Below are positions 38,663-56,145 of a stretch of DNA of 64,000 nucleotides, piece after piece; position 1 is the first letter of the stretch; the number at the start of each line of letters is the position of its first letter. Under the pieces are notes generated by a model, which was not told the origin of the DNA, ran no database searches, and worked only from the letters and a program-made list of their open reading frames with translations. Position numbers and translations under genes: made by a program. The stretch is from Promethearchaeota archaeon (GTDB lineage Archaea > Asgardarchaeota > Lokiarchaeia > Sigyniarchaeales > SOKP01), in NCBI GenBank assembly GCA_048940645.1, contig JBHLOI010000009.1, forward strand, positions 1 to 64,000, written 5' to 3'.

Positions 38663-39514
38663 TTGAAAGAAATCAAAAACAAAACAGCAGTAATCACAGG
38701 TGCAGGAAGTGGGATCGGCCGAGCGCTTGCTATTAAATGCGCTCAAGAGGGTATGAAAGTAGTACTTGCTGATATTAATGAGAAAAGCCTAGAAAGGGTC
38801 AAAAGAAAAATCCAAAGAGCGCGAGGAGAAGTTTTAACTATAAAAACTGATGTTTCAAAATATAATGAAGTTGAAAATTTAGCTCAAAAGACAATTGAAA
38901 ATTATAAATTAATTCATTTATTAATCAATAATGCTGGTGTAGCAATACCACGGCTTGCTTGGCAATATACTGTAAATGATTGGGAATGGGTATTAGGGGT
39001 AAACTTATGGGGTGTAATTTATGGTATTCGCGTTTTTGTACCGATCATGCTTCAGCAGGAAATTGAATGTCATATTGTGAATACCGCTTCTATAGAAGGT
39101 TTAGGTTCCATTGGTCCTGGAGGTGCAACATATAGCGTTTCTAAGCATGGAATAGTTGCCCTTTCTGAGGTATTAAAGTATAACCTTGAGGAAATTGGAG
39201 CAAAAATTAATGTTTCTGTATTATGTCCTGGATTAGTTGATACAAAAATCTTTACATCTGAATTAAACCGTCCTAAGGAGTATCAAATCAAAGAAATCAA
39301 GAAGATCGACATCCACGATCGAGATAGAGAAGTAGAGATGTACCGGAAAATATTGACAGAATCGCCTATGATATCACCTGAACAGGTGGCAGATGATGTA
39401 TTTCAAGCCATCAGACAGCAAAAATTTTATATTTTAACGCATACTCAACCTATTATTAAAGATCTAATAAAGGAGCGAGTGAATGCTATTTTAAGAGCAT
39501 TTGATGAGCAATGA
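38663..39514 (+). CDS. Short-chain dehydrogenase/reductase
   Basis: TGAGSGIG, NNAG, YSVSK. Confidence 0.93.
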   Translation: MKEIKNKTAVITGAGSGIGRALAIKCAQEGMKVVLADINEKSLERVKRKIQRARGEVLTIKTDVSKYNEVENLAQKTIENYKLIHLLINNAGVAIPRLAWQYTVNDWEWVLGVNLWGVIYGIRVFVPIMLQQEIECHIVNTASIEGLGSIGPGGATYSVSKHGIVALSEVLKYNLEEIGAKINVSVLCPGLVDTKIFTSELNRPKEYQIKEIKKIDIHDRDREVEMYRKILTESPMISPEQVADDVFQAIRQQKFYILTHTQPIIKDLIKERVNAILRAFDEQ

Positions 39515-39586
39515 GTAAAAAAACACAGATTCTTTTCTTTGTCTGAATTATATTATTATAATTTATAAATTAAAAAGTGATTAAAT

Positions 39587-40441
39587 ATGAATTTTAAAAC
39601 TATTAAATTTGAATTAAAAGAAAATGGAATAGGGTTATTAACTTTAAATAGACCTGAAAAGCTGAATGCTATGTCCTTTCAGATGATTGAAGATTTGAAT
39701 CAATTATTTGATCATTTGGTAATAAATTTAGATTGTCGTGTGTTAATTTTGAAAGCTGAGGGAAGAGCTTTTTGTGCTGGTTTGGATTTAAAAGAATCAA
39801 CAATCTTACAATCGAAAAAAAAACCACAAGAATTAAAGGAGAAATTTTTCTTCATTAATGTCCCAGAAAAGGATACAATAAAAGCCAAGATGTATGCTCA
39901 ATGGTATACTAGTCAACTTATAGTTAAGATGCGGAAAATCTCCCAACCAATCATAGCATTAATTAATGGTCCAGCATCAGGAGCAGGTTTTGCATTTGCT
40001 TTAGCAGCCGATATACGAATAGCTGGTCAAAAAGCGCGATTTAATAATGCATTTATTAATATTGGTTTTTCTGGTTCTGATTTAGCAAGTAGTTATCATC
40101 TCCCTAGACTTATTGGGATGTCAAGAGCAGCAGAAATACTCTATACTGGTCGCTTTATTAGTGCCGAGGAAGCAGAAAAAATAGGATTAGTATCTAAAGT
40201 TGTCGATGATACCGCGTTATTAAATGCTGCTATTGATTTAGCTGAAGAATTACTTAAGAAGAGTCCCCTAGGATTACGTATGACTAAGCAAGCTATTAAT
40301 TTATCCCTTGATTCTCCAAGTTTAGAAACCATGATCCAATTAGAAAATCGCACCCAAATGTTATGCTCGGTTTCTGATGATTTAATGGAAGGGGTGCAAT
40401 CTTTTTTCGAAAAGAGAGACCCAAAATATCCCTTAAAGTGA
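39587..40441 (+). CDS. Enoyl-CoA hydratase/isomerase (crotonase) family protein
   Basis: LNRPEKLNA, FCAGLDL, GAGFAFALAAD, FFEKRDP. Confidence 0.92.
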   Translation: MNFKTIKFELKENGIGLLTLNRPEKLNAMSFQMIEDLNQLFDHLVINLDCRVLILKAEGRAFCAGLDLKESTILQSKKKPQELKEKFFFINVPEKDTIKAKMYAQWYTSQLIVKMRKISQPIIALINGPASGAGFAFALAADIRIAGQKARFNNAFINIGFSGSDLASSYHLPRLIGMSRAAEILYTGRFISAEEAEKIGLVSKVVDDTALLNAAIDLAEELLKKSPLGLRMTKQAINLSLDSPSLETMIQLENRTQMLCSVSDDLMEGVQSFFEKRDPKYPLK

Positions 40442-40471
40442 TTAACTCTTTATTATTTTTCATTTCATAAG

Positions 40472-41374
40472 ATGAATCCCGAAAAAATTTATCAAGAGCT
40501 TAAAAGTAAACTAATAGAAGATTCAGAAGCAATTGAATTACTGATTACATTGCTAGAATCTAGTGAGGATATAAATCTTAGAATTAGAAGTTTAGAGATT
40601 TTAAGCAAAATAGATCTTGTTAATCTTAGAATTTTTAAAATTCTGGAGAATCTTCTTATTTCAGATGAAAATGAAATAATAAGATCGATTGCTGCAGAAA
40701 TTATAACGAATTGTTACATGGATAAAAGCTTAAAATCATTAAAATGGGTCATTATAAATGATGAATCTCCAATTTTGCTTAAAAAGATTAAACAACTAAT
40801 TGAGAATAAAGATCTAAATTACTCTAAAGCTTTGTTAGAGGAATATCATAATAAACTAAAGAAGATAGCCTCCATATACAGAATTAATTTTGAAGAATTA
40901 CAGCTACTTTTAGATCTAAATATAAAATTAAATGGTCAAAATTTATATCAAATGGATGCAATATTCAGCTTTATCTATGACAATAATTTTATGTGTGCTA
41001 TAAAAAAGGGGCATATTAATGAATTAAGTATGTCATTATATAATGAATTACCTACTAGTGTTGGATATTTATCTAGATTAGAACATTTAAATCTCAGCTG
41101 TAATTATTTAAGTGAATTGCCAAGTTCCTTATCAAACCTTAAACTACTTAAAACTCTTGATTTAAGCTGGAATAATTTTACTAATTTCCCGGAAGTAATA
41201 AAAAAGGTACAATCTATCGAAATACTCGATTTTAGTAATAATAATGTGGAGAAATTACCTCCATGGATAAACTTTTTAAACAATTTAATTTTTCTAAATG
41301 TAGAAAATAATAATATTGAAAAGATTCCTGAATCAATAAGATATTTAAAAAAGTTGAAATTTTTTTATTATTAA
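40472..41374 (+). CDS. HEAT-repeat + LRR protein
   Basis: LENLLISDENEIIRSIAA (HEAT); C-terminal LxxLxLSxNxLxxLP repeats. Confidence 0.85.
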   Translation: MNPEKIYQELKSKLIEDSEAIELLITLLESSEDINLRIRSLEILSKIDLVNLRIFKILENLLISDENEIIRSIAAEIITNCYMDKSLKSLKWVIINDESPILLKKIKQLIENKDLNYSKALLEEYHNKLKKIASIYRINFEELQLLLDLNIKLNGQNLYQMDAIFSFIYDNNFMCAIKKGHINELSMSLYNELPTSVGYLSRLEHLNLSCNYLSELPSSLSNLKLLKTLDLSWNNFTNFPEVIKKVQSIEILDFSNNNVEKLPPWINFLNNLIFLNVENNNIEKIPESIRYLKKLKFFYY

Positions 41375-41494
41375 CAATAATTCAGAAGCAAAACCTCGCT
41401 TGTTTTTTTTATCCAAGAATAAAAAATATACTTTAAGTAAATTTTAATTCACGCCATATTTTAGTTATAATAATTAATATTAAAGAGATTTAAA

Positions 41495-42340
41495 ATGGAT
41501 TTCAAGACTATTAAATTTGAGTTAATGGAAAATGGAATAGGCATAGTTAGTTTAAACAGACCAGAAAAATTAAATGCTATTTCCTTCCAAATGGAAGAGG
41601 ATTTGCATAACTTACTAGATGCATTAATGGTTAACTTAAATTGTCGGGTTCTTATCTTTAAGGGAGAAGGGAGAGCATTTTGCTCTGGTACTGATCTCCA
41701 GGAAGGCTTGATCTTAAATTCTAAAAAAACACCTCTAGGATATGAAACCTTTCATTATCTTAATATCCATGAACCTGTAAAAAGGAAACTATACCATCAA
41801 TGGAGAATTAGTCAAATTTATGTAAAGATGAGGAAAATAAGTCAACCAATAATAGCTATAATACAAGGAGCCGCAGCAGGAGGGGGATTTGGGTTTGCTA
41901 TGGCATCTGATATACGAATAGCAAGCGAAGATGCAAAATTCATTAACGCTTCAATTAATATTGGACTATCGGGGGCTGATACAGGTGGTAGCTATTTTCT
42001 TCCACGATTAATTGGAATGTCTAAGGCAGCAGAAATCCTATATACTGGTAGAGTTATTGCTGGAAAAGAGGCTGCAGATATTGGTTTAGTATTTAAAGTT
42101 GTTAAAACAGAGGAGCTTTTGAATTCAGCACTTAAAATTGCTGAAGAGATGTTGAAGAAAAGTCCCTTAGGATTACGTATGACTAAACAAGCTATTAATT
42201 TATCAATGGATTCTCCAAGTTTGGAAAATATTTTACAATTAGAAAATAACTCGATTGTTTTAACATTTAGTTCAAAAGATATAAATGAAGCTTCAAGTGC
42301 TTTCTTCGAGAAAAGGGACCCTAAATATCCCTTGCTATAA
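41495..42340 (+). CDS. Enoyl-CoA hydratase/isomerase (crotonase) family protein, paralog of 39587..40441
   Basis: Same motifs; high similarity to the first copy. Confidence 0.92.
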   Translation: MDFKTIKFELMENGIGIVSLNRPEKLNAISFQMEEDLHNLLDALMVNLNCRVLIFKGEGRAFCSGTDLQEGLILNSKKTPLGYETFHYLNIHEPVKRKLYHQWRISQIYVKMRKISQPIIAIIQGAAAGGGFGFAMASDIRIASEDAKFINASINIGLSGADTGGSYFLPRLIGMSKAAEILYTGRVIAGKEAADIGLVFKVVKTEELLNSALKIAEEMLKKSPLGLRMTKQAINLSMDSPSLENILQLENNSIVLTFSSKDINEASSAFFEKRDPKYPLL

Positions 42341-44297: not shown

Positions 44298-46340
44298 TTG
44301 AAAAGAAAATTCATTTATTTATTTTTAATATTCATTCTCTCTCTTAATATGACCCTTATTTTTCCTAATAACACTATGAATGAACCTTTTACAAATTCTA
44401 ACATACCAGAAGAAGGGGTATTTCGATTATCTTCGATAAACGAATGGGATTCTGATGGAAAAGAAATATGTACAGCAGTTTATAATCAAACAAATCCTCA
44501 AATATGCTATGATGGGGCAGGGGGTGCTATTATTATATGGGAAGATTTAAGAAATCCGGTTACACAGAAGGATATCTATGCTCAAAAAATTGATTCAAAT
44601 GGAAATAAGTTATGGGACAATAATGGAGAAGCTGTATGTACGTCAATTACATCTCAAATAAATCCTCAAATTTGTAGTGATGGAAATGGAGGAGCAATTA
44701 TAACATGGCAGGATTTTAGAAGTGCCACTGATTTCGATATTTATACTCAAAGCATCGATTCCAATGGAAATATAAAATGGAATATTAATTGTATTCCCAT
44801 TTGCACTTCGGAAAATAACCAATATGCTCCCCAAATTTGCATTGATGGAGTCGGGGGCGCTATTATAACATGGTATGATAATAGAAGTGGTGACTTTGAT
44901 ATTTATGCTCAACGAATTGATATCGATGGAAATATAAAATGGAATCCTAATGGTACTTTAATTTGTACAGAGATAAATGACCAATCATTACCTCAGATTT
45001 GCAGTGATGAAAACGGAGGAGCAATTATTACATGGCAAGATTATAGAAATGGTGTTCCTGCATTTGCTGATATATATTCTCAAAAAATAAATTCAACTGG
45101 AGAAGTGAAATGGACTATTAATGGAGAAGCTATATGCACAGAGAATGGAGTTCAAGCTAATGCTCAATTATGTAGTGATAAAACTGGAGGGGCAATTATT
45201 ACCTGGCAGGATTTTAGGAATTTTGCAGATTATGATATTTATGTTCAAAGGGTTAATTCTACAGGTAGTGTGAAATGGGTTATTGAGGGGTTAACTATCT
45301 GTGCTGCAAGTGATGACCAAGAGAATCCAAAGTTATGCACAGATGGAATTGGAGGTGCTATAATTACATGGGAAGATTATAGAGATGGTATAGATTATGA
45401 TCTATATGCCCAAATGGCTAATTCCAACGGAAATATTACATGGATACCTAATGGGGTAGTCATTTGCACCATAGCCAATGATCAAACTAATCCTCAAATT
45501 TGTAGTGATGGAGGTGGAGGTGCTATTATAACATGGCAAGATTATAGAAGCGCTATAAACTATGATATTTACTCTCAGCGAGTAAATACTAACGGGAATA
45601 TGACATGGACTGAAAATGGTGCTCCTATATGTACTTCAAACAATGATCAAAAAAACCCTCAAATTTGTGTCGATGGAACTGGAGGAGCAATTATTAGTTG
45701 GCAAGATTACAGATATGGATCAGATTACGATATTTTCGCTCAAAATATAAAGAATGAAGCACCATTTAGTATTTGGGATTTCTTAATAGAATATGGTTTA
45801 TATATTGGTATCGGTATAGCTTTACTTGCTCTTATTACTGCTATTGCTCTTCGAAGGAAATCAATAAAAGGGAGGAGACTCCGTGTATTTATTAGTCATG
45901 CTGTGGCTGATTTTGAGGTATATAAAATTAAAGAAATAGCTGAATATTTAGAGAAACAAAAGGAAATATCCGATGTATATTATTGTGAAGAGGATCTTGT
46001 AGGTAATATTGATGATTGGATGAAGAGGACTGTACCTCGTTGTCAACTTTTAATCTTTTTTTCCTCCGATAATTCTTTAAAATCAAGAGATTGTATGAAT
46101 GAATTAAAACTAGCACGAAAATATAATATTCAAATCACCCCAATTTTAGGAACTAATCTAAGATGGGAAGATCTAGAAGGACTAAATATTAACAGAGAAC
46201 TTGGAATGGTATACGATCCAGCTGAATTTGATAAGTTTCGCAAGGATCTGAATAACTATGTCTTAAAATTTAAAGAAGACTTAGAAAAAGAAATCCTTGA
46301 AAAAAAAGAAGGAAGGAAAGAGAAGAAAATGAAAACCTAA
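44298..46340 (+). CDS. Single-pass receptor-like protein: signal peptide, 8-repeat beta-propeller, TM, cytoplasmic TIR domain
   Basis: Eight ~55-aa repeats; TM GLYIGIGIALLALITAIAL; TIR motifs VFISHA and SLKSRDCMNEL..ITPI. Confidence 0.88.
   Translation: MKRKFIYLFLIFILSLNMTLIFPNNTMNEPFTNSNIPEEGVFRLSSINEWDSDGKEICTAVYNQTNPQICYDGAGGAIIIWEDLRNPVTQKDIYAQKIDSNGNKLWDNNGEAVCTSITSQINPQICSDGNGGAIITWQDFRSATDFDIYTQSIDSNGNIKWNINCIPICTSENNQYAPQICIDGVGGAIITWYDNRSGDFDIYAQRIDIDGNIKWNPNGTLICTEINDQSLPQICSDENGGAIITWQDYRNGVPAFADIYSQKINSTGEVKWTINGEAICTENGVQANAQLCSDKTGGAIITWQDFRNFADYDIYVQRVNSTGSVKWVIEGLTICAASDDQENPKLCTDGIGGAIITWEDYRDGIDYDLYAQMANSNGNITWIPNGVVICTIANDQTNPQICSDGGGGAIITWQDYRSAINYDIYSQRVNTNGNMTWTENGAPICTSNNDQKNPQICVDGTGGAIISWQDYRYGSDYDIFAQNIKNEAPFSIWDFLIEYGLYIGIGIALLALITAIALRRKSIKGRRLRVFISHAVADFEVYKIKEIAEYLEKQKEISDVYYCEEDLVGNIDDWMKRTVPRCQLLIFFSSDNSLKSRDCMNELKLARKYNIQITPILGTNLRWEDLEGLNINRELGMVYDPAEFDKFRKDLNNYVLKFKEDLEKEILEKKEGRKEKKMKT
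44445..45752 (+). repeat. Eight intragenic tandem repeats (~165 nt; W..NG..ICT...Q..PQIC.DG.GGAIITW.D.R...DIY.Q)
   Basis: Counted in the translation. Confidence 0.9.
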
Positions 46341-46492
46341 TTAAGATATAATTTTTTTTACTTTTTTTCGACATTTTAACAGTTTTGTTAATTAGTATCA
46401 CTAATAAAGTAAGAAAATTGCTTAAATCTTAAAAAAAAATCTTCTTCTGGTAAAAATATGGGAAATATAAAATAAAAATTAGATTTTGTTTT

Positions 46493-48220
46493 TTAAAAAA
46501 TACCTGCATCTTTGAGAATTTTCTTATGATCAAATGCTAAGTCCATAGTTCTAATCTTATCAATTGGGATTGTTTCAGCTGAAACTGCATCATCTCCACC
46601 TGCCATTCTTGAAAGATCTCGTACAAGGCGACATTTGAATGCTGTCGATACGATTTTACCTCGGGGATCACGTCCTTTCTGATCATATACTCCAATCTTA
46701 TCAATAATTTCTACGACAAGATTAGTCTCTTCTCTAACTTCTCTGATTATTGCTTGTTCAGGATCTTCGTTATATTTAATAAAACCACCGGGGAGTGCAT
46801 ACTTTCCTTTAAAAGGGGCATACTTTCTTTTAATTAATATTATATTTTGATTATCATCTTGAATAACCGCATCAGCTGTATATCCATATTCCGAGGACTT
46901 GGATTTTATTCTGCTATAAATAAAATATCCTATTGTTATAATTAAGAAAATTCCCAAAATTACCGAAATAATTAAATGCATTAATACAGATCCAGGGTCT
47001 AAAGCACTTACGCTTGAAGCAATTCTAATTGCATTTACATAATCTATTATAAATCCTGCACCTAATATGACTTGTAAGTAATATAAAGCTTTTTTAGTTC
47101 TTTTTTGGATTGCTTCGCTCCTTTTAATATATAATTCCTGCATTGAATCATAAAGCATTTTGAATTTTTCATTTGTTCTATTAATAATTACTTCCAAACG
47201 GAATTTTCTTATCAAATGCGTTAAAACTCTTGTATAATGTTGACGTGGGTTCCAATCTAATTCACTATAGATAAGACTCATCTTCGTTTGAATCATCCCC
47301 CTTAAAAACCTAAGATTCTTAGTTTTCTCCTCGATCTTTTGTAAACTCATAAATACGTCGGAATAGCGTTTCATAAATAAAACGTCAAGTGAATTATTGA
47401 TTGACATTAAAGCGAAAAGAACAGCCCTCATCTTAGGGGTAGGTTCTAAGATATGGTCTTTTATATATGGAAACTCTGTTTCATAATTTCTTTCTACCAT
47501 ATAAATGAATCCAGAATTTCTTTTAATATAGTGTAATTCAGATAAGCGATTAGATAGATTTTTTTTAACTCTTCTTTCAAAATAGTTCTCGCTATAATCA
47601 CCCCATTGACCTGCATATACCTGAGTCCAATATCCGAGAGCCTCCTTATATCTATCTATACTTTCCTCATTCCATTGAACTTCCATAGGTAGGGTTTTAT
47701 TAGAGATAACGAAAACGTATATCGGACTTTCTGTATCAAGAAGAAGGAACTGATTTTCTCTCTTTTTTCCAAATTTTTTAAGGATATCAATCGTTATAAA
47801 GGGAATCTGTTGAATCAAGTCCGATGTAATTTTTTCTTTCTTATATGGCTCATTTTTATAGTATTCGACTTCTAACTTGAAATAACCAAGTGTATTATAG
47901 ACTAAATCTCTATTATCTTCAGTATACGGGTTATTTTCATCAGTATAAGGGAAATTTTGAAAAAATGGCTCCCAATCGCACTCAATTGAAATAGAATTGG
48001 CCATTTCCCTCAATATCTGCTTTTTTTCTTCAGCATAAGGATATTTTTCTAAATATATAAATGCTTTCTTAAGATCATTTTCATTTAGGTTTTTTAATCT
48101 CTCCAATAAAAGAGCTTCTATTTCTTCTGCCTTAGTTTCTCCAATGAACTCGTTTGTATTAATAAACGCACTAATATACCAGAATTCTTTTGCATAAACA
48201 AACCGTAACTTTTCTTCCAT
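46493..48220 (-). CDS. Membrane protein: large N-terminal soluble/helical (CorA/DUF155-like) region, 2 TM, C-terminal Nudix hydrolase domain
   Basis: Nudix box GFIKYNEDPEQAIIREVREETNL; RDPR and LAFDH motifs; long stalk helices before two TM helices. Confidence 0.8.
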   Translation of the reverse strand: MEEKLRFVYAKEFWYISAFINTNEFIGETKAEEIEALLLERLKNLNENDLKKAFIYLEKYPYAEEKKQILREMANSISIECDWEPFFQNFPYTDENNPYTEDNRDLVYNTLGYFKLEVEYYKNEPYKKEKITSDLIQQIPFITIDILKKFGKKRENQFLLLDTESPIYVFVISNKTLPMEVQWNEESIDRYKEALGYWTQVYAGQWGDYSENYFERRVKKNLSNRLSELHYIKRNSGFIYMVERNYETEFPYIKDHILEPTPKMRAVLFALMSINNSLDVLFMKRYSDVFMSLQKIEEKTKNLRFLRGMIQTKMSLIYSELDWNPRQHYTRVLTHLIRKFRLEVIINRTNEKFKMLYDSMQELYIKRSEAIQKRTKKALYYLQVILGAGFIIDYVNAIRIASSVSALDPGSVLMHLIISVILGIFLIITIGYFIYSRIKSKSSEYGYTADAVIQDDNQNIILIKRKYAPFKGKYALPGGFIKYNEDPEQAIIREVREETNLVVEIIDKIGVYDQKGRDPRGKIVSTAFKCRLVRDLSRMAGGDDAVSAETIPIDKIRTMDLAFDHKKILKDAGIF

Positions 48221-51930: not shown

Positions 51931-54900
51931 ATGTCAAAGAAGAGATTCATTATTCTATGTCTAATGGTTGTTCTATTTTTAAGTTGTAATTTTACTCTGA
52001 ATATGGTTAATTTTGAGAATAAAATGATTTTTCAAAAAGAGCTTTGTCTTAAAAGTTCTGGTTACTGGGTTCTTAATAGTATTATTATCGATGATACAGG
52101 GGGAGGAGATTACCTATGGATAACAGCAGCAGCTGAAGATTGGTGTAGCGGTAGTGGCACATGGAATAACCCTTACGTAATTGAGAATGTCACATTTAAT
52201 GCTAACAATGCAGGTAGTGGCTTATTAATTCGTAACTCAAATAAATATTTTATAGTCAGAAATTGTACTTTTCATAATTCAGGTTCTTTCACAGGGGAAT
52301 ATAACGATGCAGGGCTTAGTCTAAATAATACTAAGAATGGTAAACTTATCGATAATGAATGCTCATTTAATAATGGATATGGAATCTCCTTAGATTGGAA
52401 TAGCGATAATAATACTGTTGAAGGAAATATCCTAAAAAATAATTCAATTGATGGGGCGATTTTAAGATATAGTTATAACATTACTTTTTCAAGAAATACC
52501 GCAATATTTAATGTTGGAACTGGAATTACTACACTTGGAGCTAATAATTCTAAAATTTTTCAAAATACAGCTATATATAATCAGGCTGGTATATGTATTG
52601 CTAGTGGGAGTAAAAATATTACAGTATCTGATAATATTATAAGGCATAATACAATTGAGGGACTCTATTTAAGGGTAGGATCTACGAATAATACGTTTAA
52701 AAATAATCTAATATCATATAATGGCTTAGGCAACGGGTATGGGATAGGACTAAGAATGGATGGCACCACTTTTAATAAAATCTTAAATAATGATATAAAA
52801 GACAATAGGAACGGGATTGAAATGCTTACTTATGATAATAATCATCATAATATCATCTTTAATAATGAAATAGAAGATAATGAACTATATGGATTAAGTA
52901 TCCAAAATGGCAGTAATGATAATCTTATATATGGGAATCTTTTTAGTAATAGTCCAAATAATGCTTTTGACAATGGAGCTAATAACAGTTGGGACAATGG
53001 AGTCTTAGGGAATTGTTGGGATGATTATAATGGCACTGGTCCATATATCATTTGGGGGAATGCAGGGAGTCAAGATAATTTTCCAATGTTTAACAATTAC
53101 AATATTCCAGGTGATATTGGTATTATTCCCTTAAATCAGACTATTAAAATCGGTTTAATTAATGATATGAATCATATAACTGGAAAAGATACTTTGAAGG
53201 GAGCTAACTTGGCAGCCAAAGAAGTCAATGAAGCTGGTGGAGTCTTAATTAATGGTTCTATCTTCTATATAGGTCTTACGTCACATAATACTTTTGAGTA
53301 TGAAATACCTCTTAATATAAATAACGGAGTTAACGCTGTCTATAATATGATTTCTAATTACAATCCAGATTTTATTATTGGAGGAACACAATATGATGCA
53401 GTAAATGCATACACTGAAACTATTATGGATGCTAAAATTCCATTTATTTCAACAGGATGTAGTTTAAATACTCTTACTCAAAATGTAATAGATAATTATA
53501 ATCGGTATAAATATTTTTTCAGGGCAATGATTAATGCTTCACAAATATTCACAGAACTAATGAACTTTCAAGCATACCTAACTAACTATTTAAGTAGTCC
53601 ATCAATTTTAAATAGACCAATTAATAAAATAGCATTTCTTTATGAAGATTTATATTATTATTCTAATCTTATGAACACACTAAAAACTTATTTACCTATA
53701 GTTGGGATAGAAATTGTAAAAGAGATTAAGTATGACTCAAGCACTAGTAAAAGTGAATTTGAACAATATTGGAATGAAATAGATAATGCAGGAGCTCAGC
53801 TTACGTTAGTAGGTTCTTTTTTTTCAGACAAGGTAAAGATAATCAGTGAAACTTATGGTGAAATTAAACCTAGATGCTTATTATTTAGTACATATTATAA
53901 TTCGACGAAAGAATATTGGGATGGAAGCAATGGAAAATGTCAATATGAAATTTCCTATCAAAGTATCTATAACATTTCTAGAACTTCGCTAACAAAACCT
54001 TTTTGGAATAATTTTATAAATGAATATAACCATGAACCCACGTTCCACAGTGCGAGTGCATACAATGCCATTTATCTTATCGTAAATGCAACTAAAGACA
54101 GTCAATCGTGGAGTGCTGATAAAATAGTAGGTAGCTTAGAAAAAATTAATACATCCAATTCCTTTCCTGGAGTTTGTGGACATATAGCTTTTAAATCTTC
54201 TCATGGGATTTATAATGCTTTAGGCTATGGTTCAGGTTTAATGTGCCAATGGCAATCAGGTGGAACTAAAGTAGTAATTCCAAATGGGAATTTGATTTAT
54301 TCTGATTCCTTAGCAACTGGAAGTTTAGAAACCCCTGATTGGGGAATTAATATTCGTTTTACAATAAATTCTCCCAGTAAAAATAATGTATTTGCTGAGT
54401 TCTCCCCAGATTTTAATATTGAGATTTTAGATGCAGTAGACAAAATCTGGTACACGTTAAATTCTGGATCAGAAAAATATTTTATAACGAATAATGAAAC
54501 AATTGATCAAACAGCTTGGATGGCTTTATCTGATGGGGTTGTCAAGATTACGTTTTATTCTAATGAGACTTCAGGAGAAATCTATAGGAGATTTGTTCAT
54601 GTAATAAAAGACACTGAACCTCCGCAAGTTACAATAGAACCTATGGATACCACTACATTTGGAAGTGAAGCACCTACGATAATACTCAATATTCAGGATA
54701 CGTCTAATATAACAGAAAGTTATTATAGCTTAGATGGAGGAGTAACAAAAATACCATTTACCGGCAATGAAGTTACAATTAATCAAACGCTCTGGGATGT
54801 GTTAGGAGAAGGAATAGTAACAATTAGTTTTTACATTATCGATTCAGTTGGTAAGGAAACCATTGTATACGTAGATGTTTATAAAGATTTACCAGGTGAT

Positions 54901-56145
54901 GACTTTCTCTTATATATTATTATAGGTGTTATAGCTCTTGGTTTAGGAGTTGTGAGTACTATTGTTTATACCCAATATAGAAGAAAAAAGAGAAGAAGAA
55001 CTGAATGGATTAAACTTAAAAAGAAAAAGGGCTTAATCTCACCAGAATTAGCTGAAGGTAAAAACTTAATTTTTATAAGTTATGCAACAACAGATTCAGA
55101 CCTATTCCAAATCCCATTAATTACCGATATTTTAGTCCAATACCCCGAGATCGATGATATACTTTATTGGGAATCCGATATGCATGATGACATTTATGAA
55201 TATATGGACGATAACCTAAAACTCTGTTCTGTTTTCCTTCTGTTTTGTTCACAAAATTCCCTCTATTCGGAACCTGTTAAAATGGAATGGCGTTCAGCGT
55301 TAAAATTAGATAAGAAAATAATTCCCATTTTCATTAATCCAAATGATATTCCCCCATTATTAACTACCAAATTAGGTGTGCAATTTAATGAAAGTGAAGT
55401 TTATGATTCAATAGAAGCAATATACCAAATGCTTCTCAAAAAGCTGGAAATAGTTTCTACTAGAGAATTTTGTAAATATTTAATTCCAAAAATGGTTTCC
55501 GACCAATATTTTGAAGAAAAAACAGCAGTAATGGTGAAAAAAGATATTGAAATTGAAAGCGATAATACTATTGATGATCTACAAATACAATTTATTTCAA
55601 TTTTAGAAAAGAATAACTTTCAATTTCTCAAAAAACCAATAGAAATTGAAGAAATAGAGAAATCAGAATCCCATTTAATATCTCTAAGATTTTTTGCTGA
55701 AGATAAATTTGAAAAACTAGAAATTGGATTAACTGCTACTATTCAAAAAGTTGAAGATTATAAGAATAAAATTTATCTTAGAGTCATGGGGAATAGAGAA
55801 TGGATGGTAAATGAAATTTTAAGCGATCTTGCTAATAAATCATATCCATTAAAAACTGTCACTGAATTATTAAGAGAATATTCAGAAAAAATTGATAATT
55901 TCATAGATCATATAGACAATCTTGAAGAATTTCTTAGAAAAAATCTTGGTCCAGAAATTGAGGAAATTGAAGAAACAATATATCAATATTTAAGTAAGCA
56001 AATTGAAAAAGACGATTTTATAAAGAAAGGGCTCCAAATTCTTGGAAAGCGATTTATACTAGTTTTCATAGAAAATTTACCAAAAATACTTCATGAAAAG
56101 GAAGAGTTAGAAGATAAAGGCAAGGAGATTGACATTCAACTTTAA
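51931..56145 (+). CDS. Single-pass receptor-like protein: signal peptide, NosD beta-helix, type-I periplasmic-binding (Venus flytrap) domain, two Ig-like domains, TM, TIR domain, C-terminal domain
   Basis: Asn-rich beta-helix; IKIGLI...GANLAAKEVNEAGG...YKYFFR...AYNAIY (LivJ-like); TM at ~54904-54969; TIR IFISYA...SLYSEPVKMEW...IIPIF. Confidence 0.88.
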   Translation: MSKKRFIILCLMVVLFLSCNFTLNMVNFENKMIFQKELCLKSSGYWVLNSIIIDDTGGGDYLWITAAAEDWCSGSGTWNNPYVIENVTFNANNAGSGLLIRNSNKYFIVRNCTFHNSGSFTGEYNDAGLSLNNTKNGKLIDNECSFNNGYGISLDWNSDNNTVEGNILKNNSIDGAILRYSYNITFSRNTAIFNVGTGITTLGANNSKIFQNTAIYNQAGICIASGSKNITVSDNIIRHNTIEGLYLRVGSTNNTFKNNLISYNGLGNGYGIGLRMDGTTFNKILNNDIKDNRNGIEMLTYDNNHHNIIFNNEIEDNELYGLSIQNGSNDNLIYGNLFSNSPNNAFDNGANNSWDNGVLGNCWDDYNGTGPYIIWGNAGSQDNFPMFNNYNIPGDIGIIPLNQTIKIGLINDMNHITGKDTLKGANLAAKEVNEAGGVLINGSIFYIGLTSHNTFEYEIPLNINNGVNAVYNMISNYNPDFIIGGTQYDAVNAYTETIMDAKIPFISTGCSLNTLTQNVIDNYNRYKYFFRAMINASQIFTELMNFQAYLTNYLSSPSILNRPINKIAFLYEDLYYYSNLMNTLKTYLPIVGIEIVKEIKYDSSTSKSEFEQYWNEIDNAGAQLTLVGSFFSDKVKIISETYGEIKPRCLLFSTYYNSTKEYWDGSNGKCQYEISYQSIYNISRTSLTKPFWNNFINEYNHEPTFHSASAYNAIYLIVNATKDSQSWSADKIVGSLEKINTSNSFPGVCGHIAFKSSHGIYNALGYGSGLMCQWQSGGTKVVIPNGNLIYSDSLATGSLETPDWGINIRFTINSPSKNNVFAEFSPDFNIEILDAVDKIWYTLNSGSEKYFITNNETIDQTAWMALSDGVVKITFYSNETSGEIYRRFVHVIKDTEPPQVTIEPMDTTTFGSEAPTIILNIQDTSNITESYYSLDGGVTKIPFTGNEVTINQTLWDVLGEGIVTISFYIIDSVGKETIVYVDVYKDLPGDDFLLYIIIGVIALGLGVVSTIVYTQYRRKKRRRTEWIKLKKKKGLISPELAEGKNLIFISYATTDSDLFQIPLITDILVQYPEIDDILYWESDMHDDIYEYMDDNLKLCSVFLLFCSQNSLYSEPVKMEWRSALKLDKKIIPIFINPNDIPPLLTTKLGVQFNESEVYDSIEAIYQMLLKKLEIVSTREFCKYLIPKMVSDQYFEEKTAVMVKKDIEIESDNTIDDLQIQFISILEKNNFQFLKKPIEIEEIEKSESHLISLRFFAEDKFEKLEIGLTATIQKVEDYKNKIYLRVMGNREWMVNEILSDLANKSYPLKTVTELLREYSEKIDNFIDHIDNLEEFLRKNLGPEIEEIEETIYQYLSKQIEKDDFIKKGLQILGKRFILVFIENLPKILHEKEELEDKGKEIDIQL

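Follow-up and report, generated by a model that had tools for sequence, protein, structure and literature searches.

The window (the whole stretch of DNA analysed, 64,000 nt) contains two convergent genes, P0001 and P0002, which together with the features discussed below are listed in Table 1. A first-pass annotation, made from the letters alone, had placed two open reading frames here about 150 nt apart, and both are indeed present with that arrangement. Runs of T follow each of the two stop codons, which points to separate transcription ends, so that P0001 and P0002 would make up two transcription units and not an operon. The second TIR receptor in the window carries, in order, a signal peptide, a beta-helix/NosD region, a periplasmic-binding-protein domain, a transmembrane (TM) helix at aa 987-1015 and a TIR domain. 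Other neighbours in the window are a thioesterase, an OsmC protein, an amino-acid permease and a CCG/Fe-S protein. The possibility that the window is part of a defence island was considered and rejected, the surrounding genes being metabolic. PADLOC returned no system match for the TIR protein, and the Nudix domain of P0002 alone matches the candidate PDC-S07. The window genome (3.83 Mb) has just five TIR genes, two of them within 4 kb of the P0002 gene. Other TIR genes of this genome are fused to, or lie beside, small GTPases, and the TIR domains here could therefore be adaptors and not enzymes.

Table 1. Features of the P0001/P0002 locus (positions in the window).
Feature	Position	Strand	Remarks
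P0001	44298..46340	+	Receptor-shaped TIR protein, 680 aa, TTG start
TIR_2 core of P0001, aa 530-619	45885..46154	+	Pfam PF13676
Convergent spacer, 152 nt	46341..46492	.	T-runs after both stop codons
P0002	46493..48220	-	575 aa, weakly CorA-like N-terminal part fused to Nudix
Nudix domain of P0002, aa 447-570	46511..46882	-	Pfam NUDIX, E 2e-18
TM hairpin of P0002, aa ~376-440	46901..47095	-	Predicted structure and hydrophobicity
Cytoplasmic α/β domain and stalk helices of P0002 (predicted), aa 1-375	47096..48220	-	Without Pfam family
Second TIR receptor, 1404 aa, 3.7 kb from the P0002 gene	51931..56145	+	Same TIR subfamily

P0001 has the layout of a receptor, as had been proposed from its letters. 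A misassigned start was considered and rejected, since translation from the TTG codon gives a proper signal peptide and a TATA-like box lies about 40 nt 5' of it; the hydrophobic stretch in question (aa 3-24) would serve as a signal peptide or an anchor. The ectodomain (aa ~53-490) is built of eight repeats of about 55 aa each (spacing 54-57 aa), every one with paired Cys residues and a GGAIITWQD core, and an NCBIfam-type profile search gave only weak matches of these repeats to the TIGR04275 beta-propeller repeats. A TM helix at aa 492-521 is followed by RRKSIKGRR and then by the cytoplasmic TIR domain, which scores 34.1 bits against the TIR_2 cut-off of 28 (E 4e-8), was recovered again in the genome search, and extends over aa 523-670 by a family-specific HMM.

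A PDB search with the single P0001 TIR sequence retrieved nothing meaningful, and solved TIR proteins were reached only with a profile of 12 sequences. All 12 related TIR domains of that profile have the Glu that is Glu602 in P0001 (CMNEL, nt 46101-46103), and its aligned counterparts in solved structures are the Glu of SEWVKKE (9m0n) and that of GVLKE (SPARTA TIR-APAZ protein 8qlo). The Glu of these VKKE/VLKE motifs is the catalytic residue of the two solved proteins. By this alignment, the conserved Glu anticipated in the first-pass annotation is in place, and we infer that P0001 carries the residue expected of an NADase-competent TIR domain, with NAD+ cleavage as its putative activity. One could instead suppose a non-enzymatic adaptor domain that, in the manner of animal Toll-like receptors, docks directly onto P0002 or some other protein; the Nudix domain would then have nothing to do with TIR chemistry. 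A weak match of the TIR profile to SEFIR-type adaptor domains (E 0.01) would fit such a role, as would the small GTPases found with other TIR genes of the genome. Nevertheless, we consider this very improbable, because the Glu at the catalytic position does not vary among the aligned domains and because the associated genes (Nudix, SIR2 and nadA, see below) all concern NAD+ or ADP-ribose.

The Nudix domain of P0002 contains both the RDPRG and the LAFDH (aa 561-565) motifs that had been read from its translation. Its Nudix box (consensus GX5EX7REUXEEXGU) is intact (GGFIKYNEDPEQAIIREVREETNL, aa 478-501, nt 46718-46789), the single deviation being an Asn where the consensus has its penultimate Gly. 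The best NCBIfam matches are NadM-Nudix (3.8e-17) and NrtR (5e-13), and PDB profile matches include 2qjt/2qjo and 3gz5/3gz8, while the best PDB match is 2yyh, named an 8-oxo-dGTPase domain by its depositors. Foldseek with the P0002 model retrieved 3gz8, which is ADPR-bound, and 2qjo at E about 1e-9. By its closest relatives and motifs, the domain is thus of the ADP-ribose type (NadM-Nudix/NrtR, COG1051-like) suggested earlier, with a putative substrate of that kind. NadM-Nudix and NrtR, the best matches in both sequence and structure, have the RDPRG and LAFDH motifs in common with P0002; they differ in their fusion partner, which is an NMN adenylyltransferase in one case and a winged-helix DNA-binding domain in the other, whereas the partner in P0002 is a membrane protein. 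Clades A and B, and almost all members of the P0002 family, have an intact Nudix box. As with NrtR, some members have lost the catalytic box; these form two lineages that retain RDPRG and LAFDH, which suggests that ligand binding is important even where there is no hydrolysis.

The remainder of P0002 had been described as a long helical domain with two TM helices. Long helices are predicted, but they follow an α/β domain, so the first 375 aa are not purely helical; TM2 (aa 404-439) is strongly hydrophobic, but TM1 (about aa 376-402) is amphipathic. The whole N-terminal part of 445 residues (α/β domain, stalk helices and TM hairpin) occurs in the family also without the Nudix domain, and its invariant residues within aa 1-375 include W83, G112, W183, W198, Y202, D208, E228 and an NLSNRLSELH motif. 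None of the 38 family members scanned matched CorA (PF01544) or any other Pfam family in this part, and hhalign of the P0002 family against the same lineage's own CorA gave a probability of 0.35%. The GMN motif is absent from the end of TM1, where the family consensus reads LFGAG (FGAG in its place) and the organism's own CorA has YGMNF. The sole sequence bridge from the P0002 family to CorA is indirect and distant, namely P0237, a distant member that matches Pfam CorA with GVN for GMN.

Foldseek with the full-length model of P0002 returned Nudix matches only, and the N-terminal part was therefore folded alone. With this model, Foldseek retrieved dozens of CorA chains (probability 0.84-0.98, E 5e-3 to 4e-2), and VIA aligned 216-244 residues (model residues 7-443) to CorA, MRS2 and ZntB at Z 6.0-7.1, values that fall short of 8 and count as no more than middling in the tool's documentation. 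In a wide VIA search, helical-hairpin matches to the TM/stalk region dominate and CorA entries stand at Z 6-6.7. The predicted fold of the N-terminal part weakly resembles the divalent cation channels CorA, MRS2 and ZntB across the whole chain. The predicted order of elements is that of this superfamily (MIT), with an α/β cytoplasmic domain, a long stalk helix and a C-terminal TM hairpin, and the alignment is collinear; P0002 differs in being about 90 residues longer, in lacking GMN and in having a Nudix domain after TM2.

We then looked at the surroundings of P0002-type genes in related genomes. Among the orthologues of P0002 (clade A, 67-92% identity, 19 evaluable loci), 15 have a TIR gene directly adjoining, within about 1 kb. 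The number of TIR genes per locus ranges from zero to four (one to four where present), and they lie upstream or downstream, convergent or divergent, on either strand, across three syntenic contexts. The partner TIR genes belong to one TIR subfamily with at least two distinct sub-lineages, and their sensor regions include Cys-paired repeats, LVIVD with TSP3 repeats, a beta-helix with a periplasmic-binding-protein (PBP) domain, a beta-helix alone, three WD40 propellers, or small proteins. Surface sensing, as proposed in the first-pass annotation, suits most partner TIR proteins, which are membrane receptors, but not the WD40-TIR and zinc-ribbon-TIR proteins, which are soluble. In the genomes examined that have few TIR genes (2-5), one adjoins a P0002-type gene; for the window genome, a TIR gene would be an immediate neighbour by chance at about 2x5/3600 = 0.3%, a rough estimate that is post hoc for this window. 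A genome of a different family, G042, encodes a 32%-identical paralogue that forms a row with two genes, TIR-zinc-ribbon and SIR2_2-TPR, and is divergent from a third, zinc-ribbon-TIR, so that two of the three TIR genes of G042 flank it. A word-indexed search for further context of this clade gave one more relative, on a 1.9-kb contig.

The expected co-occurrence of the two gene types thus holds for clade A and the G042 paralogue, but not for the family at large, since TIR neighbours were absent at about 65 loci of other clades. The metagenomic relatives P0117 (64% identity) and P0120 (57%) likewise have no TIR neighbour, and some genomes with a P0002-type gene have no detectable TIR gene, e.g., G059, which is 94% complete. 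The loci of other clades and the TIR-free genomes imply that the ancestral role of the family need not involve TIR. Moreover, the loci of clade A are all closely related, and the linkage may go back to only one or two evolutionary events. The TIR linkage of clade A looks non-random.

A first alternative is that there is no coupling at all: P0002 would be a housekeeping protein of NAD+/ADP-ribose turnover in Lokiarchaeia, whose clade A copy happens to sit at a variable spot where receptor-TIR genes build up, undergo rearrangement and disappear. Almost every genome of the genus has a P0002-type gene, as do related families, whether or not a TIR gene is nearby. Four clade A loci have no TIR gene, G007 has the same flanks as the window but no TIR genes, and in G021 the TIR neighbour is a pseudogene, so TIR genes appear to be gained and lost between conserved flanks; the variable orientation and the separate terminator-like T-runs of the convergent window genes fit the same reading, as does the sister clade, which is linked to nadA and not to TIR. 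On the other hand, adjacency that spans three syntenic contexts and at least two TIR sub-lineages is harder to accommodate, as are genomes with only 2-3 TIR genes that place one beside a P0002-type gene and the independent G042 paralogue with its two TIR genes and SIR2 gene. We judge an absence of coupling to be somewhat unlikely, while taking it seriously.

The sister paralogue of P0002 is commoner than clade A, and in 28 of its 66 loci it lies directly next to nadA, a gene of NAD+ synthesis, in divergent orientation; none of its neighbours is a TIR gene. At two loci (L078 and L135) nadA comes after the gene of clade A as well. The P0002 family is tied to NAD+ through its nadA neighbours, which adds a genomic link to NAD+ synthesis genes to its likeness to NrtR and NadM. 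A second alternative builds on this. P0002 could be a membrane-anchored ADPR pyrophosphatase whose only task is to dispose of the ADPR that membrane-bound NADases of the TIR (and SIR2) kind release, its CorA-like part being an anchor or oligomerisation scaffold without gating; AMP and ribose-5-phosphate would return to metabolism, and nadA would serve to rebuild NAD+. The Nudix box preserved in almost all members, the nadA neighbours and the NadM-Nudix type of the domain agree with this, and a stand-alone 141-aa Nudix gene, 47% identical and present in most of these genomes, fits a general ADPRase activity. Against it, the 445-residue part, conserved with many invariant residues and found also without Nudix, is more than an anchor needs, and two lineages dropped the catalytic box yet kept the ligand-binding motifs. 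Clean-up as the only function of P0002 therefore seems doubtful to us.

Among known systems, Thoeris (TIR ThsB plus effector) is similar in that one or several variable TIR genes lie beside a single conserved non-TIR gene, a layout that we presume to be comparable to that of clade A. The TIR proteins of both have the conserved Glu, and several Thoeris effectors are, as is P0002, membrane proteins, which in Thoeris bind ADPR-derived signals. In contrast, Thoeris TIR proteins are cytoplasmic phage sensors, whereas the majority of those described here have a large ectodomain and the layout of a type-I membrane receptor, and P0002 has none of the Thoeris effector domains (SLOG, Macro, DUF2270, SLATT and so on). 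Thoeris is also anti-phage, while the P0001/P0002 locus does not lie in a defence island and has no known defence phenotype. A survey of Thoeris types I-XI lists neither Nudix nor CorA among the effectors (bioRxiv 10.64898/2025.12.03.692087). The CorA effector of type III-B CRISPR is bound by a nucleotide messenger and is always accompanied by a messenger-degrading enzyme, which is sometimes fused to it (PMC10600005). Compared by description only, it is, as P0002 appears to be, a divergent CorA-family membrane protein with a unique N-terminal cytoplasmic domain (PMC10600005). Its messenger is SAM-AMP from Cas10, whereas the presumed producer for P0002 is a TIR protein, and its degraders are NrN, DEDD or SAM-AMP lyase. 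The enzyme fused to it is a DHH or DEDD phosphodiesterase, whereas in P0002 it is a Nudix domain.

Taking the observed architectures, catalytic-type residues and TIR, SIR2 and nadA linkage as its parts, we tentatively favour, at a little short of an even chance, an NAD+-centred module of two parts: TIR receptors would cleave NAD+, and the ADP-ribose-type product would be both ligand and substrate of the CorA-like/Nudix protein. The producers would be one or more TIR proteins, in the window P0001 and probably the 1404-aa receptor, with varied and mostly extracellular sensor domains; on activation, the TIR Glu would cleave NAD+ to give ADP-ribose or a related nucleotide. P0002, putatively a distant membrane protein of the CorA superfamily with its C-terminal Nudix domain on the cytoplasmic side, would be the receiver. 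Its Nudix domain would bind and hydrolyse the nucleotide, ending the signal or clearing the product, and the CorA-like body may turn nucleotide binding into ion flux.

A bolder version of this module, which we think unlikely, is an Asgard transmembrane pathway that would combine the designs of two animal systems: Toll-like receptors convert an outside cue into an ADPR-type nucleotide that gates a CorA-type channel through a fused, self-resetting Nudix domain. TRPM2 is an animal channel gated through a C-terminal cytoplasmic Nudix domain of the ADPR type (NUDT9-homology), and the parallel with P0002 is conceptual: the resemblance drawn in the first-pass annotation stands, but the channel parts are not homologous (a 6-TM TRP against a CorA-like 2-TM body), and the Nudix domains are of the NUDT9 and the NadM/NrtR type, respectively. 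Toll-like receptors share the ectodomain-TM-TIR layout with P0001, whose ectodomain does not consist of leucine-rich repeats. We know of no sign of common descent between either animal protein and its counterpart here. If true, the pathway would be a prokaryotic counterpart of the ADPR-gated TRPM2 and the first TIR signalling route for cell-surface sensing tied to NAD+ economy, and not to phage defence.

Signalling from TIR through a nucleotide to an effector is already known from bacterial Thoeris and from plants, and type III CRISPR has CorA effectors with fused degraders. The archaea described here, the lineage nearest to eukaryotes, apparently put this logic together from other components. 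The P0002 family is undescribed and narrow: a set of 1.84 billion representative proteins contains only 116 clusters of it at 50% identity, and the labelled genome records found to encode it are all Promethearchaeota or mislabelled. If the link is real, it would make tractable the question of whether TIR signalling across membranes by receptors is older than the eukaryotes. It would also provide a new class of ligand-gated membrane protein and assign a role to a conserved gene of Lokiarchaeia, annotated in databases as '8-oxo-dGTP diphosphatase'. Should the TIR link fail, the close association with nadA would still make the P0002 family a candidate for a part in NAD+ homeostasis of archaea.

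Both genes of the convergent pair described in the first-pass annotation, the TIR receptor P0001 and the Nudix protein P0002, are present as given there, and T-runs follow each of them within the 152-nt spacer, which argues for separate transcription units. P0001 has a hydrophobic N-terminus (aa 3-24) and eight repeats at intervals of 54-57 residues; every repeat contains two Cys plus the core GGAIITWQD, and the repeats weakly match the beta-propeller model TIGR04275. The protein also has a TM helix (aa 492-521) with a basic stretch directly after it and a TIR domain (aa 530-619) scoring above the curated cut-off of Pfam TIR_2. A second TIR receptor gene lies 3.7 kb from P0002; its product combines a signal peptide, beta-helix/NosD, a type-I periplasmic-binding-protein domain, a TM helix and a TIR domain of the same subfamily as the WD40-TIR partners in other genomes. 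The window also holds four consecutive same-strand ORFs, possibly encoding paralogous enzymes, with a 799-aa ORF upstream on the opposite strand. By the NCBI names of close homologues, the organism falls within Promethearchaeota (Lokiarchaeia-type Asgard archaea). Elsewhere in this genome (G000), one protein starts with a Ras-like small GTPase and ends in a TIR domain, and another TIR gene adjoins small GTPase genes and the gene for a 1155-aa protein; in this archaeon, TIR domains are part of signalling proteins of several types.

Features at the P0002 locus and at related loci (G, genome; C, contig; L, locus)
Feature	Location	Strand	Description
P0001	window 44298-46340	+	680 aa, TIR protein
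P0002	window 46493-48220	-	575 aa, Nudix at C-terminal end
Second TIR receptor	window 51931-56145	+	1404 aa
Four ORFs in a row	window 38663-42340	+	281-300 aa
GTPase-TIR protein	G000:C55:10538-12331		598 aa
TIR gene near GTPase genes	G000:C46:7039-8394		
nadA of G000	G000:C99:589-1539		quinolinate synthase
nadA beside clade B gene	L108:6951-7958		further examples: L097, L106, L145
4-TM protein	L017:3831-4274		~145 aa; equivalents in L016, L020, L022, L071, L073
Box-less family member	L048:3356-5032 (G041)		REUXEE lost
Box-less family member	L051:453-2135 (G003)		REUXEE lost
G042 gene row	L054:2-5460 (G042:C17)		CorA-like-Nudix, 619 aa; TIR+zinc ribbon, 249 aa; SIR2_2+TPR, >443 aa
G042 divergent gene	within L054:2-5460 (G042:C17)		triple-zinc-ribbon-TIR, 320 aa
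Split family gene	G017:C77:195748-197418 (L032)		in-frame TAA

The Nudix domain with RDPR/LAFDH motifs that had been claimed for P0002 was borne out, as aa 447-570 match Pfam NUDIX (E 2e-18) and contain an intact Nudix box (aa 478-501) together with RDPRG and LAFDH. In NCBIfam it is matched best by NadM-Nudix bifunctional enzymes and by NrtR, a repressor that responds to ADPR; the structures 2qjt/2qjo (NadM-Nudix) and 3gz5/3gz8 (NrtR) were among the best PDB matches in a family profile search and were recovered by Foldseek too, 3gz8 being an ADP-ribose complex. Because the box is unbroken across nearly all family members, the domain should be a hydrolase. Pure clean-up of ADPR by such an enzyme strikes us as an improbable role for P0002. 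In two lineages (G041 and G003) the catalytic residues are gone but RDPRG and LAFDH are retained, which hints at selection on ligand binding itself; NrtR-type sensors likewise keep ligand motifs without catalytic residues, and these two members may be sensor-only, non-hydrolysing versions.

Residues 1-445 of P0002 found no match in Pfam, NCBIfam or PDB sequences. AlphaFold models of this N-terminal part, built from input alignments of 38 and 31 sequences, were confident (pLDDT 87) and predict an α/β domain, long stalk helices and a TM hairpin. Searched with Foldseek, the model retrieved dozens of CorA chains (probability 0.84-0.98, with weak E-values); a second structure comparison placed CorA, MRS2 and ZntB at Z 6-7.1, with 216-244 residues collinear over model positions 7-443, and CorA, CmaX and MRS2 were also retrieved in a wide structure search. 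Shape matches in the ESM Atlas (TM 0.6-0.67) included some clusters named CorA-like as well as clusters carrying different C-terminal enzyme domains. The GMN motif is absent from the P0002 family, and hhalign of the family against the lineage's own CorA was negative. In an exhaustive profile search the family amounted to only 116 clusters among 1.84 billion representatives, the most distant member being P0237, a 486-aa metagenomic protein that matches Pfam CorA just under the cut-off (E 1.6e-5) over the stalk and TM region, carries GVN at the position of CorA's GMN, and may be an evolutionary intermediate between CorA and the P0002 family. P0002 is not a Mg2+ CorA; its N-terminal part is probably a distant CorA-superfamily scaffold. 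A CorA-type receiver coupled to an enzyme that ends the signal has a close precedent in the type III CRISPR CorA effector, which binds SAM-AMP and is always accompanied by a SAM-AMP-degrading enzyme, sometimes fused to CorA (PMC10600005).

Within the genus, nearly all genomes have a full-length P0002 homologue; related families have such homologues too, and one family has the N-terminal part without the Nudix domain. In the tree, the P0002 orthologues form clade A (67-92% identity), with clade B (~50% identity) as its sister. TIR genes were mapped at 140 fetched loci with an HMM built from the same genomes, and one lies within ~1 kb of the clade A gene at 15 of 19 evaluable loci. The convergent arrangement of the window recurs in G021 (where the TIR gene is a pseudogene), G033, G026, G030, G019 and L068; the TIR gene lies upstream in the same direction in G015, G008, G002, G004 and G012, and is downstream or divergent at L071, L073 and L135; TIR genes flank the clade A gene on both sides in G026 and L071, and four loci (G007, G018, L072, L078) have no TIR neighbour. 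The adjacency spans three distinct syntenic contexts, and TIR genes are scarce per genome (five in G000, three in G008, two in G002, three in G012). The partners belong to a single TIR subfamily with widely differing sensor parts, most being type-I membrane receptors and the WD40 and zinc-ribbon ones soluble; adaptor-type docking by these TIR domains seems very remote to us. A small 4-TM protein and a WD40-TIR protein are encoded in a cassette that occurs on either side of the clade A gene. The conserved 4-TM protein, which belongs to no Pfam family, is always encoded before the soluble WD40x3-TIR gene (~1230 aa) and could be the membrane partner of its product.

No TIR neighbour was found at any of ~65 loci outside clade A, a paralogue in G042 excepted, and in five genomes with clade B only, a Pfam TIR_2 search placed no TIR on the relevant contigs. 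The co-occurrence across Asgard genomes by which the proposed pairing was to be checked holds at most clade A loci and for the G042 paralogue but fails at those other loci. The P0001 query found no TIR in the 100% complete genome G017, where the split family gene may be a pseudogene. The G042 paralogue (32% identical, from another family) is an independent case: of the three TIR genes in G042, two flank it. The gene row and the divergent gene together resemble a compact locus for NAD+-centred conflict or signalling, in a Lokiarchaeial family other than that of the window.

At 28 of 66 loci, nadA (Pfam NadA, E 3e-107) stands right beside the clade B gene in divergent orientation, with a gap of 5-166 nt, an arrangement suggestive of common control with de novo NAD+ synthesis. 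nadA also directly follows the clade A gene at L078 and L135 and sits just behind the TIR cassette at L071 and L073; G008 and G004 carry the full row of 4-TM protein, WD40-TIR, A, convergent B and divergent nadA, and in G000 nadA is on a separate contig. With nadA, TIR and SIR2 as neighbours, the P0002 family is therefore tied to NAD+.

The most economical reading, which we hold tentatively, is an NAD+-centred module for signalling and its termination, in which TIR proteins would consume NAD+ and the CorA-like/Nudix protein would handle their ADP-ribose-type product. Against this module, the clade A loci are closely related to one another, gene orientation varies, TIR genes come and go while their flanks stay fixed, the family clearly has an ancestral role that does not depend on TIR, and the CorA resemblance is weak; that the TIR genes and P0002 have no functional coupling is somewhat unlikely in our judgement. 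Among known kinds of system, the module would recall Thoeris-like TIR signalling, a CRISPR-CorA-like receiver and an NrtR/TRPM2-like Nudix sensor. Nudix and CorA are both missing from the effectors in a recent survey of TIR signalling (bioRxiv 10.64898/2025.12.03.692087), and the putative module would be based on a narrow, hitherto undescribed Asgard protein family.
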